A stretch of DNA of 15,738 nt, filler included, from an uncultured bacterium (GCA_964609495.1; 9 parts of 9 records of this genome joined end to end with filler, not necessarily neighbours in it), one strand, 5' to 3'; shown: positions 3,728-6,893, counted from the whole stretch's first letter. Numbers and translations: made by a program. Notes: generated by a model not told the origin, from the sequence alone.

Positions 3728-3896
3728 NNNNNNNNNNNNNNNNNNNNNNNNNNNNNNNNNNNNNNNNNNNNTTAATTAATTAANNNNNNNNNNNNNNNNN
3801 NNNNNNNNNNNNNNNNNNNNNNNNNNNATATCCTATCCTCTTATATACTTAAATATAAGATTACAAATCAATAAGTATGTTTGTAATTATAAATAC

Positions 3897-4166
3897 TTAT
3901 TTAGGAGTGATAGGATTTCGTTCAAAAAACTCATCTATTGCTCTTCGCACCACTTCCGATTTATCAAGCTCATTGTAGAAAGCGTAGGCTCTAATATTCT
4001 GTATCTGGACAGGACGAAAATAGTAAGTCTTTCTTTTGTATTCTTGTTTTCTTGTAGACTTATCTACTTGTCCCTCAGCAGGGGATTCTTTCTCATTAGT
4101 CTTGTGGAAGAATATCTTTTTCCCCTCCTTAGGACTCTCTGGGATTTTAGCTCTTTTTTTACTCAT
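3897..4166 (-). CDS. Small ribbon-helix-helix (CopG/ParG-like) DNA-binding protein, probable ParA partner
   Basis: Basic, apparently disordered N-terminus. C-terminal KRKTYYF (strand)...IQNIRAYA...KSEVVRRAIDEFF pattern. Start overlaps the parA stop. Confidence 0.75.
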   Translation of the reverse strand: MSKKRAKIPESPKEGKKIFFHKTNEKESPAEGQVDKSTRKQEYKRKTYYFRPVQIQNIRAYAFYNELDKSEVVRRAIDEFFERNPITPK

Positions 4167-4923
4167 TGTTGATCACCTTAGCTAGCTGGCGATAAGCTTC
4201 TGCACCTTCACTATCGCTAGCGTATTTTAAAATTGATTCTTTAGCTACAGGAGTCTCCTTAAATCTTACGGTCTCTTTTATTACCATATCGAAAACTCTA
4301 ATATTTCTCTCAAATTCTGCTCTGGTTCTTTGAAGCACTTCTCTGGAATGAAGTGTTCTCTTATCATAACGAGTGGGTAGTATGCCTAAAATTTTCAAGT
4401 TAGGATTGACCTCTTCTCTTATCCCCTCAATTATATCTAATAGCAAACTTATTCCCACCATAGCGTAATATTCGCAGGAGAGGGGTATTAAAACACTATC
4501 TGCTGCTGAGAGAGCATTTACGGTAAGTAATCCTAAAGCCGGAGGACAATCGATTAGGATATAATCATAATTTTGTTTTATGGGCACTAAAGCATTTTTC
4601 AATCTATCTTCTCTATGATATTTGTTCATCAACTGGAGTTGAGCCGCAGCTAGGTCGATGTTAGAAGGAACAATATCTATCCCATCTTCCAGATTATATA
4701 TGATTTCTCCTATATCGATTTTGCCCATTAACACTTGGTAGATAGTTTGTTTAAGGTTATATACTTCAGGGACTCCAACACCAATACTCAAGCTTGCTTG
4801 AGGATCTATGTCAACTAATAGGACTTTCTTTCCTAGTTCGTTTAATGCCGCTCCTAAGCACCAACAAGTGGTTGTTTTTCCAACACCCCCTTTTTGGTTT
4901 GCAATGGCAATAGTTCTAGTCAT
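4159..4923 (-). CDS. parA: ParA/Soj family partition ATPase
   Basis: Deviant Walker A NQKGGVGKTT, LVDIDPQAS, YDYILIDCPP and ALSAAD motifs; 254 aa. Confidence 0.95.
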   Translation of the reverse strand: MTRTIAIANQKGGVGKTTTCWCLGAALNELGKKVLLVDIDPQASLSIGVGVPEVYNLKQTIYQVLMGKIDIGEIIYNLEDGIDIVPSNIDLAAAQLQLMNKYHREDRLKNALVPIKQNYDYILIDCPPALGLLTVNALSAADSVLIPLSCEYYAMVGISLLLDIIEGIREEVNPNLKILGILPTRYDKRTLHSREVLQRTRAEFERNIRVFDMVIKETVRFKETPVAKESILKYASDSEGAEAYRQLAKVINNE

Positions 4924-4953
4924 AATGTCCTCTTATGGATATAAAGATAATAT

Positions 4954-4994
4954 TACTTGAATACAAGTATACCACCAAAGAGATAAGAAGTCAA
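4954..4994 (-). promoter_or_regulatory. parA promoter with overlapping palindromic operator
   Basis: Minus strand TTGACT (4994-4989), 17 bp, TG-G-TATACT (4971-4966, extended -10). Inverted repeat TACTTG-aata-CAAGTA at 4954-4969. Confidence 0.7.
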
Positions 4995-5080
4995 GGGGGT
5001 AAAGGAGAAAAATTTTCTATAATAGCAGGCCATCATCTTCCTGTTAAAATAGCAGAAGTAGTAATGGAAGCTTACTAAAT

Positions 5081-5254
5081 ATGGAGATTATGCCAGATCA
5101 TATTCATCTTTTTGTCTCAGCACCACCTTATATAGCACCTACGGAAATGGTTAAAACTATTAAAAGTATAAGTGCAACAGAAGTGTTTCGGAGATTCAAG
5201 AATCTTAAAGCAAGGGGATTCTGGGGATCAGGATTATGGTCAAAAGGATATTAT
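5081..5254 (+). pseudogene. tnpA: IS200/IS605 Y1 transposase fragment, truncated at both ends
   Basis: HUH motif MPDHIHLFV, then IKSISA and LWSKGYY. Lacks the N-terminal region and the C-terminal catalytic YxxxQ helix; the frame runs into the RNA element and stops at 5290. Confidence 0.9.
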
Positions 5255-5510
5255 GTCAATGACCCACGACTGAAGGTCGTGGGCTTGTAGGGGAAACTGC
5301 AAGCCTGATTGACCAGCCTAAGTCCTGTTGGACTACGTTAGCTAGATCAAGACACCATAGGATGCTCCTCCAGTTCTATGCTCTGTCGCTAATAGTTAAA
5401 AGTTCTGAGGTCAGGAACGGTGCTATTAGCCTAGTAAGTCCAGCTAACATTGGCGAGGAGGGATAACCGAGAGGTTACGTTACCAGCCCCGTAAGGGGCT
5501 CCGCAAGGAG
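5255..5510 (+). ncRNA. HEARO-like / omegaRNA scaffold of an IscB/IsrB-family (RRXRR/PLMP) IS200/IS605 element
   Basis: Characteristic GTCAAnnACCC...GGGCTTG...TTGACCAGCCTAAG...CTACGTT...GACACC...GGATGC...CCAG...CTCTGTCG...AACATTGGCGAGG motif order. Multiple stems, a CTCCTC(5365-70)/GAGGAG(5455-60) long-range pairing, and GNRA-capped 3' hairpins. Confidence 0.85.
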
Positions 5511-5518
5511 AAAGAGAT
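5255..5518 (+). mobile_element. One end of an IscB-type IS200/IS605 element; nuclease ORF lost at the contig break
   Basis: Subterminal hairpin CCCACGAC-tgaag-GTCGTGGG (5263-5283). AGGAG RBS (5506-5510) followed by AT at the last two bases of the contig, a probable ATG. Confidence 0.7.
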
Positions 5519-5618
5519 NNNNNNNNNNNNNNNNNNNNNNNNNNNNNNNNNNNNNNNNNNNNTTAATTAATTAANNNNNNNNNNNNNNNNNNNNNNNNNN
5601 NNNNNNNNNNNNNNNNNN

Positions 5619-6893
5619 ATAGGCGAGATGGTGAGAATTCTCGTACTCCTTCTCGTATCCTGAGACCTGAAGGGCGGCATAGACCGCGGCTTGGGTATAG
5701 CTTTGCTCCGCTCCGATGACATTGATTACCCCATCCGTCTTGAATTTCTCCCTCTCTTCTCCTTCTGGATCGGAGCTCCAGAGCATCTTTCCATTCGGCT
5801 GGAGGCTATAGGCTAGATAGCGCATATCCCTGCTTAAAAGCCCAAATTTCCACATCTGATAAGCGATATCCTTGGCGGTGTAGGTAGGCAATCCATTCGA
5901 CCTTATCAATATCTTGCTGTTCAAATATTCATCATCGGAATTCGATTTACCGCTTGTCCAGAACTCGTCCATGTCTATTACCAAGCATCCCTTTTGGGGC
6001 CCATCCTGCGCCACATATACATGGGAGGATTTCTTTATCTTCTTCATCGCCTCTTCGAGAAGCTCGGATCGGACGATGTCGCTCTCCCAGCTCAATAGAT
6101 CATAGAAAACATTCAGACGCCAGGCTGTCTCCAACTGGGAATATAAGCACCTCTTCACGAATTCCCTATAATCACCACGCTCAAGCTTGGGCATCACCCC
6201 TTCTATTCCTCGCTCTATCTCTTTGAGTTCCTCTTCTTGGCTATCAGGATGTTCATCCTTCCCTCTCAATAGCGAATGCAAACGGACGTATAAATCGCCC
6301 AGGAAATGATCGAACTTGAGCCCATCGGGCTTATCCTCTTTGAAGTATTCGAAAGCATAGATAGTATCTGCTACCTGTTTTCCGGTGTCATCAATGTAGT
6401 TCTGTATCTCCACCTTATGCCCCAATTTTCTGAGGAGTCTTCCTAATACGTCTCCCAGAATCGCATTTCGGGAGTGTCCGATGTGCCAAGCTTTGTTAGG
6501 ATTAACCGAGGTATGTTCGATAATAACATTTTTCTTCTCGATCTCAGCAGGGACTCCGTAATCTTGATCGAGCTTTTGAATAAGAGTGATAAGCTGAGGG
6601 TAGAAAAGCTCGTTGTTGAGAAAGAAGTTTATATATCCTGCCCCGGCTACCTCGGCCCTCTCTACCAGAGGAGAGGAGGTATAATCGAAGCCTTTGACTA
6701 ACTCCTGAGCCATCCCTTGCGGTTTCTTCTTATATCTCTTACTGAGCAGAAAAGCTATATTGCAGGAGAGATCTCCGAACTCTCGACGGGGAGGGATGAC
6801 TAGAGAGATCTCAAGATCGTTTAGATCGATATTCTGAGATTTGATGAGATCGGTGCATTGTTCCTTGAAATCTAGGAAAGGGGTTTTCCGCAT
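5619..6893 (-). CDS. argS: Arginine--tRNA ligase, 3'-truncated
   Basis: FGDLSCNIAF, AGAGYINF, EHTSVNPNKAWHIGHSRNAILGD (HIGH), NYIDDTGKQ and RSNGLPTYTAKDIAY motifs. Confidence 0.96.

Follow-up and report, generated by a model that had tools for sequence, protein, structure and literature searches.

Does an RNA-guided nuclease whose guide RNA adjoins part of a transposase gene act against transposases, or does its guide record only the place at which its transposon came to lie? This question is raised by one locus in a 15,738-nt stretch of DNA from an uncultured bacterium (GCA_964609495.1; hereafter the window), in which the scaffold of an omegaRNA, the guide RNA of the nuclease IscB, begins directly behind a piece of an IS200-type tnpA gene. 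The window consists of nine contigs of ~1.5-1.8 kb each, ordered by falling size and joined by eight spacers; the contig that bears the junction is that at 3828-5518 (1,691 bp), and iscB is thus outside the window. A first-pass annotation had placed the omegaRNA element inside the tnpA gene and had proposed that the nuclease cuts intact copies of this gene, homing into them or suppressing them. As argued below, the guide is probably an ordinary flank-derived one that keeps an IscB element at a plasmid-like locus. The simplest account of the tnpA codons in the guide is that they are a by-product of history, and no evidence of a dedicated anti-transposase function was found.

Transposon end and IscB element

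The omegaRNA scaffold is the sole Rfam match in the window and covers the HEARO model (RF02033) from position 1 to position 211 of 211, with 157.3 bits (gathering score 83) and an E-value of 6.5e-34. Five loci with this RNA (L005-L009) were retrieved from a metagenome contig collection by a pattern scan with the 5′ end of the scaffold, and the scaffold patterns gave no match in viral contigs. L008 (3.6 kb) contains the junction contig with 1691/1691 identity (window 3828-5518 corresponds to L008 174-1864), and L009 (10.3 kb, from a different metagenome record) differs from it by 1 mismatch in 1691. The HEARO copies of L008 and L009 score the same as that of the window, and the copy of L006 scores 156.2 bits. 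The junction contig was found repeatedly in salt-marsh and sediment metagenomes of several studies.

In L005, L006 and L007, the DNA 5′ of the scaffold is unrelated to that of the window up to the base preceding GTCAATGA. The scaffolds of L006 and L007 are ~95% identical to that of the window, and L005 is more distant. One contig of sequencing run X3 matches the window from 5255 on only, and its loose flank is the flank of L006. Because other scaffold copies carry unrelated flanks that end exactly there, 5254/5255 is, on this comparison, the transposon end, in agreement with the boundary drawn in the first-pass annotation. Copies that are ~95% identical and follow unrelated 5′ flanks (L006, L007 and the X3 contig) are the pattern expected of a mobile element.

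The shortness of the junction contig (1,691 bp) and the multicopy state of the element in the samples could suggest that a tnpA read was fused to a HEARO read at 5254/5255 during assembly, an artefact that the first-pass annotation had itself kept in view. However, the identical junction is present on the 3.6-kb and 10.3-kb contigs of two metagenome records, and it is crossed by contigs of runs X3 (record 13, 4270-5284) and X7 (record 26, 5230-5325), the shorter sides of which (30 and 25 nt) fall just below the 31-nt minimum of the bridging rule. Two protein records (P0043 and P0044) also read across the stub/scaffold junction. With the join repeated on independent contigs, an assembly chimera is so improbable that it was ruled out.

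On L008 and L009, the scaffold is followed after 51 nt by the ATG of a co-oriented iscB gene, so that the contig end at 5518 lies one base before this ATG (L008 1865; also on L009). The open reading frame (ORF) of 440 aa is open throughout and identical in L008 and L009. It matches the NCBIfam equivalog guided_IscB (NF040563) with 433.2 bits against a cutoff of 175, and the Pfam families RRXRR (5.1e-68) and HNH (1e-14). In alignments to proteins of solved structure (TbaIscB, 6e-53; OgeuIscB, 1e-30), the DPG, HNH and (T/D)HYxDA columns, which are presumably catalytic, are kept, the last of them as THYYDA.

A second hairpin, CCCACGACTAAAGATCGTGGG, is located near the iscB stop on L009. Extended by the three bases before it, this hairpin forms a 24-nt direct repeat (92% identity) with the hairpin at the start of the omegaRNA (L009 5342-5365 and 6879-6902). 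The right-end hairpin lies 8 nt from the right end and the left-end hairpin 17 nt from a GTGA; subterminal hairpins are thus present at both ends on one strand, as in the IS200/IS605 superfamily (ISC), which lacks terminal inverted repeats. The left end was placed with the help of a related multicopy family on viral contigs (L013-L021, IscB 52-54% identical), in which similarity stops at the hairpin plus ~19 nt plus GTGA in 7/7 copies with different flanks. The corresponding layout is hairpin, 17 nt and GTGA in the window element, and hairpin, 18 nt and GTGA in L010. L005 was considered as a second full copy for placing the left end and was rejected, because it has a HEARO without IscB.

As delimited in this way, the element is a 1,583-bp non-autonomous ISC transposon (L009 5328-6910), of which the window holds the right-end part (5255-5518). 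According to Kapitonov et al. (2016; PMC4810608), ISC transposons are 1,341-1,707 bp long, have subterminal hairpins, and use GT|GG and GT|RA target sites. The window element resembles the non-autonomous members described there in its single iscB (RRXRR/RuvC and HNH), its length of ~1.6 kb, the absence of an internal tnpA, its two subterminal hairpins, its GTCA 5′ terminus, the GTGA in its far flank, and the position of HEARO upstream of iscB. No structural difference from these transposons was found, and the only oddity is the tnpA relic next to the right end.

The stop codon of iscB is the TGA within the flanking GTGA, both in the window element (L009 5324-5327) and in L010 (~2718-2723); in both, the iscB ORF passes through the left-end hairpin to the element edge, and at a GT|GG site the iscB frame would continue into the flank. 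In the L013-L021 family, iscB ends earlier with TAG, so that a stop within GTGA is seen in 2/3 families.

The tnpA relic and the flanks of the element

The frame that runs into the scaffold from its 5′ side (ORF 5081-5290) has two family matches, Pfam Y1_Tnp over profile positions 46-104 of 121 (E 9.1e-18) and NCBIfam transpos_IS200 with 63.5 bits (cutoff 55). It retains the HUH motif but lacks the first 50 residues and, at the C-terminus, the helix that bears the catalytic tyrosine. In alignment A1, 9/9 full-length relatives read ...LWSKGYYVGTAG(T/A)V(T/S)xETIxxYIxxQ..., that is, they continue through GTAG(T/A)V(T/S)xETIxxYIxxQ, which corresponds to this helix. The window frame reads ...FWGSGLWSKGYYV followed by NDPRLKVVGL*, and the helix is absent because the frame leaves the tnpA alignment at LWSKGYYV|NDPRLKVVGL*. 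The switch from tnpA into the scaffold at 5255 with loss of the YxxxQ helix, as recognized in the first-pass annotation, is thus confirmed. The truncation at the 5′ side had been missed: tblastn with P0001, P0002 and P0011 on L009 recovered only residues 51-112/113 (window 5072-5257/5260), and no N-terminal TnpA homology was found in the three upstream frames. With a partial domain, no N-terminal strand and no YxxxQ helix, the tnpA piece does not have the features of a functional Y1 (IS200) transposase and is best described as a relic, not a gene.

P0043 (98% identical to the stub) and P0044 (89-93%) both run the stub into HEARO (...GYYVNDPRL...), and the stub/HEARO junction is thus inherited as a unit in diverged copies. 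The first-pass annotation had held that its reading would fail if the stub were a fixed part of the element with no uninterrupted allele. This situation is approached, with the junction kept in both records and no uninterrupted allele found.

Several close TnpA relatives (P0045-P0047, P0052 and P0053) are recorded as ~77-aa proteins beginning with MPDHIHL, and the tnpA gene of L039 (~2495) is truly truncated at residue 55. The short starts and the L039 break lie near the 5′ breakpoint of the stub (residue 51). A shared break near residues 51-55 could represent a recurrent breakpoint or merely the choice of start codon by gene callers. Among the viral-contig relatives of tnpA, 3/16 are broken, one each by an internal stop, a truncation at the 5′ side and a truncation at the 3′ side, and in a further one the gene is cut off where the contig starts.

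The flank at the other end of the element belongs to a different gene. Beyond GTGA, 51 residues match the C-terminus (residues 503-553) of AlbA_2/HATPase_c_4 proteins of 553-557 aa with 57-60% identity; a Pfam scan of this flank had given only a sub-threshold AbiEi_4 match (E 0.037), and the protein search then gave AlbA_2/HATPase_c_4. No other part of such a gene was found on L008 or L009, and neither residues 1-50 nor residues 114-134 of TnpA were found anywhere on the 10.3-kb L009 by tblastn with three full-length TnpAs. Because the far flank is the tail of an AlbA_2/HATPase_c_4 gene and the other half of tnpA is absent from L009, the element now lies, on these comparisons, between fragments of two different genes and not within one tnpA. 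The placement of the omegaRNA element inside an IS200 tnpA, as originally proposed, is therefore not retained, since only codons 51-113 are left on one side and the tail of an unrelated gene stands on the other. Flanks that derive from two different genes imply that at least one of them is secondary, and the simplest history is that two element copies inserted at different GT|GR sites recombined, or that a deletion occurred next to the element.

An association between IscB elements and tnpA was not seen in related loci either. Among IscB relatives on viral contigs (n = 20 loci, 33-68% identity), 14 carry HEARO, all starting with GTCA or GTAA after unrelated flanks, and a TnpA-like segment within 3 kb was found in 0/20 (tblastn, E up to 1). 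The recurrent insertion of IscB elements at WSxGYY codons that the first-pass annotation had suggested looking for was accordingly not observed in any of the 20.

One viral contig contains an autonomous ISC2Y-type element (L030 828-2800), with HEARO (85.9 bits), an iscB for 401 aa, a codirectional tnpA for 134 aa that overlaps it, and at the left end a hairpin that resembles its right-end hairpin. Its TnpA is 71% identical to the stub and is the closest full-length TnpA among those with DNA in hand. This order of genes is that of the ISC2Y elements of Kapitonov et al. (2016; PMC4810608), in which iscB is followed by an overlapping Y1 transposase gene. Because the tnpA of L030 lies downstream of iscB, the stub upstream of the window HEARO lies outside the element. 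The comparison also shows, as far as sequence identity can, that the stub is a member of a transposase lineage associated with autonomous IscB-TnpA (ISC2Y-type) elements. The likeness to the L030 layout extends to a second, orphan HEARO on L009, which is 74% identical to the HEARO of L030. In contrast, the tnpA piece of the window is located upstream of the RNA and outside the element, and the IscB encoded there is only 33% identical to that of L030. Apparent associations of IscB with a neighbouring TnpA can thus represent relics outside the element.

Guide, target motif and candidate targets

IscB guides are ~16 nt long. According to the account of Meers et al. (10.1101/2023.03.14.532601), the guide lies outside the transposon's right end and is taken from the flank, IscB cuts the donor joint of the two flanks with a target-adjacent motif (TAM) shared with TnpA, and IscB elements tend to share the orientation of the upstream gene. 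Because the scaffold starts at 5255 and the guide comes from the adjoining flank, the 16-20 nt ending at 5254 would fill the guide slot, and these are the tnpA codons LWSKGYY. The assignment of the guide to 5235-5254 and to the WSxGYY codons in the first-pass annotation agrees in position with the HEARO start and with the published geometry. Even at a tolerance of 3 mismatches, the window contains the 20-mer of 5235-5254 a single time (expected 0.01). Similar to the systems that Meers et al. describe, the window element has a right-end-bounded omegaRNA, a guide from the flank, predicted targeting of the donor joint and a co-oriented upstream sequence, and the HEARO lies well within the 500 bp upstream of iscB that they use. 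It differs from them in that the putative TAM is GTGA (TCAC on the top strand) instead of the AT-rich TAMs of Geobacillus, and in that the upstream "gene" is a dead fragment; the comparison here is one of sequence only.

GTGA follows the left end in the window element, in L010 and in 7/7 copies of L013-L021, in keeping with GT|RA target sites. The predicted empty site, in guide orientation, is ...GGATATTAT|GTGAAG..., and because GT is present at both ends, the cut can also be written GT|GA. The TAM of OgeuIscB has been given as NWRRNA. The GT at 5255-5256 coincides with a Val codon that is invariant in tnpA and is followed by Gly (GGN) in all relatives, so that an allele with TAT GTG GGN (Tyr-Val-Gly codons) would have a canonical GT|GG site exactly at the junction. 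A past insertion into tnpA is therefore plausible. An argument that intact tnpA (GTN GGN) cannot carry the TAM GTGA was dropped, because ISC families also use GT|GG in the account of Kapitonov et al. (PMC4810608), and in view of the OgeuIscB TAM.

A living tnpA target was sought in several collections. The exact 20-mer has 4 matches in 185,579 species genomes (one genome each), all in unrelated non-tnpA genes, and 0 matches in IMG/VR viral contigs. In 5.8 billion protein clusters, the full-length TnpA nearest to the stub has an identity of 84%, and among proteins that keep the C-terminus the nearest have 80-85% (best 84-85%). Identity stays below 60% in every one of the 3003 plasmid and 107 phage records that match TnpA; a plasmid DNA search with 4990-5518 gave only 3 distant tnpA matches (74-78% over ~100 nt), and the best TnpA in 401 genomes of one phylum is 49% identical. 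The site that corresponds to the guide was read in 38 tnpA genes, of which 15 are on viral contigs and 23 come from 30 loci of the 401-genome phylum sample (the motif pattern missed the other 7). The 16 nt next to the scaffold position differ from the guide at 2-9 positions in these 38 sites, and none of them combines a near guide match with GTGR. The two closest tnpA relatives depart from the guide at 4 and 5 positions, and GTTGG comes next in both. L048 (TAT GTG GGA) is the only surveyed tnpA with a correctly placed GTGG (1 of the 23 phylum-sample sites), and it has 8 mismatches. The intact tnpA allele with the 20-mer that the first-pass annotation anticipated was thus encountered in none of the 185,579 genomes, IMG/VR, the protein collections or the 38 surveyed sites.

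On a viral contig, the LWAKGYY codons of L035 match 18/20 guide nucleotides, including all 12 nearest to the scaffold, and are followed by TGTG, not GTGR. The TnpA of L035 is only ~45% identical to the query P0046, and the match arises from motif conservation together with AT-rich codons. It appears that the conserved motif can create near-targets, while no actual target was found in the collections searched. One contig of run X11 (290 nt) agrees with 5072-5158 at every base, and its remaining ~200 nt are unaligned; cover over 5196-5252 in this run drops after 5253 and does not enter the scaffold, although gaps in contig cover prove nothing. The X11 contig could derive from a HEARO-free or longer tnpA allele or from another context, or it could merely reflect short unitigs. 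One full-text search of the literature gave no paper on a natural IscB or TnpB guide against a transposase gene, which is no proof of absence.

The reading that probably applies is that the element is kept at its plasmid-like locus by an ordinary flank-derived guide. The slot would spell LWSKGYY because IscB guides are read from whatever DNA adjoins the right end. Expression, cleavage, TAM use and mobility of the element, as predicted from the features described above, would then combine as follows. The guide and GTGA would specify the empty site of the locus itself, ...GGATATTAT|GTGA..., and IscB would recut element-free copies of the plasmid locus after excision by TnpA. Recombination would restore the element at the cut site, as in the cut-and-copy model outlined by Meers et al., and in a multicopy plasmid this process would spread the element among the plasmid copies as a drive. 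Most likely, the element first inserted into tnpA at a canonical GT|GR site, and an exchange of flanks between two element copies or a deletion came afterwards. A related phenomenon is described by Mears et al. (2025; PMC11870625), in whose experiments TnpB drives IS200/IS605 elements through multicopy plasmids. The present locus is similar in that an insertion sequence with a nuclease is located on a plasmid-like replicon, the guide records the insertion site, and element-free copies would be cut; it differs from the TnpB system in that the nuclease is IscB and the carrier is a putative plasmid whose multicopy state is likewise putative. On this reading, the locus would be a natural example of known IscB biology, in which the omegaRNA is bounded by the right end, the guide comes from the flank, the target motif is GTGA and the carrier is plasmid-like.

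Several points weigh against this reading. The left-end boundary is drawn from related families and the literature, with one left flank for the element itself. The GT at 5255-5256 in the Val codon fits a site-specific insertion into tnpA and keeps the scenario of the first-pass annotation as history. No plus-strand sigma-70-like promoter was found in 4927-5254 (scan of 4880-5518), with a bacterial consensus that may not be that of the host, and 0/24 of the listed sequencing runs are RNA. No cognate intact TnpA was found on the contigs, so that mobility at present is putative, and L009 has no terminal overlap, which leaves the circularity of a plasmid unsupported.

The main alternatives differ in what the guide would do now. 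If the locus were a decaying relic, in which the stranded element has neither a cognate transposase nor a living target and IscB-omegaRNA is inert, the gene fragments in both flanks, the orphan HEARO without iscB and the other broken transposon pieces on the replicon, the HEARO without IscB in L005, the lack of a predicted plus-strand promoter and the frequency of fragmentary tnpA copies (3/16 viral-contig relatives broken) would all be expected. Decay is nonetheless unlikely, given an iscB that is open over 440 codons, keeps its motif columns and has the same sequence in L008 and L009, a HEARO score as high as those of the best family members, and at least two further ~95% copies with other flanks in the same habitats, which suggests recent mobility.

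Somewhat less likely than decay is an element inserted in tnpA whose guide directs IscB to intact tnpA copies, with homing (drive) or suppression as the result. The guide slot is indeed tnpA sequence, the junction lies at the invariant Val codon before Gly, where GTG GGN would give GT|GG (L048 is a real case), and the stub shares 71% identity with the TnpA that the autonomous L030 element encodes; the perfect match of L035 over the 12 TAM-nearest guide nucleotides and that of the X11 contig over 5072-5158, with its other ~200 nt unaligned, also point in this direction. These observations are set against a far flank that is not tnpA, a stub without its first 50 codons, a junction that is kept in diverged copies, the lack of an intact allele in genomes, IMG/VR and proteins, plasmid and phage TnpAs below 60% identity, 0/38 tnpA sites that pair a near match with GTGR, and 0/20 related IscB loci that adjoin tnpA. 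The proposal that the nuclease cuts, homes into or suppresses intact tnpA copies therefore finds no allele to act on in the collections searched, no tnpA at the 20 related IscB loci and no tnpA in the far flank. More doubtful again is a hyperparasitic drive, in which an IscB element at the GT|GG of Tyr-Val-Gly codons cuts and copies itself into intact tnpAs carrying GTGR and so inactivates the lineage that mobilises it; the present locus would be a later rearranged remnant of such a process, which agrees with the ISC target-site rules and has no positive evidence. If a drive reading of this kind were true, the locus would be a natural case of the RNA-guided nuclease of one transposon directed against the transposase gene of another and would bear on competition between autonomous and non-autonomous IS200/IS605 elements, but the evidence here is unsupportive.

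Carrier replicon and neighbouring features

The features of the junction contig and the spacers are listed in Table 1. Because the contigs of the window are only chained through the spacers, genes on either side of a spacer are unlinked; an ArgRS gene at 5571-6893 lies past the contig end at 5518 and is unrelated to the junction locus.

Table 1. Coordinates of the features discussed, in window positions.
Feature	Position	Strand	Basis
HEARO/IscB omegaRNA scaffold, starts at the transposon right end	5255..5467	+	Rfam RF02033
Putative omegaRNA guide slot, 20 nt directly 5′ of the scaffold, codes (L)WSKGYY	5235..5254	+	HEARO start position; Meers et al. geometry
Right-end subterminal hairpin CCCACGACTGAAGGTCGTGGG, also first omegaRNA hairpin	5263..5283	+	Direct repeat with left-end hairpin; motif scan
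3′ extension of the omegaRNA region with GGAG-type ribosome-binding site	5468..5518	+	Comparison with L008 and L009
Relic of a Y1 transposase gene (IS200/ISC2Y type), internal part with residues ~51-113 of ~134	5072..5254	+	tblastn; Pfam; alignments A1 and A2
Partition ATPase of the ParA type (254 aa), divergent from the tnpA relic	4159..4923	-	Pfam AAA_31 1.5e-63, CbiA 3.4e-25
89-aa ORF, possible small partition partner of parA	3897..4166	-	ORF list; 8-nt overlap with parA end
Spacers	1835-1934, 3728-3827, 5519-5618 and five more		N44-TTAATTAATTAA-N44

The ParA-type protein scores under the cutoffs of the NCBIfam ParA/MinD-type models, and no Pfam or NCBIfam family matched the 89-aa ORF. The pair is also present on L008 and L009. 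In addition to ParA and its small partner ORF, L009 contains AbiEii, a tRNA and a replication protein, the N-terminal domain of which is phage-O-like (Pfam 1.4e-16). With this gene set, the carrier of the element looks like a plasmid- or phage-like replicon rich in relics of OMEGA elements, and the mobile replicon that the first-pass annotation had suspected from the par cassette is thus supported by the larger contig.

The AbiEii toxin gene is located at L009 123-953. At L009 1510-3800, a TnpB (OrfB_IS605 and Cas12f1-like TNB domain) adjoins resolvase and HTH ORFs, which together resemble an IS607-like set. The orphan HEARO lies at L009 4265-4484 (-), with 113 bits, no iscB behind it and a tRNA gene next to it. 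Its identity to the first HEARO of L009 is 57%, as compared with the higher identity to that of L030 given above, and it may be either a relic or a stand-alone guide RNA that is usable in trans.

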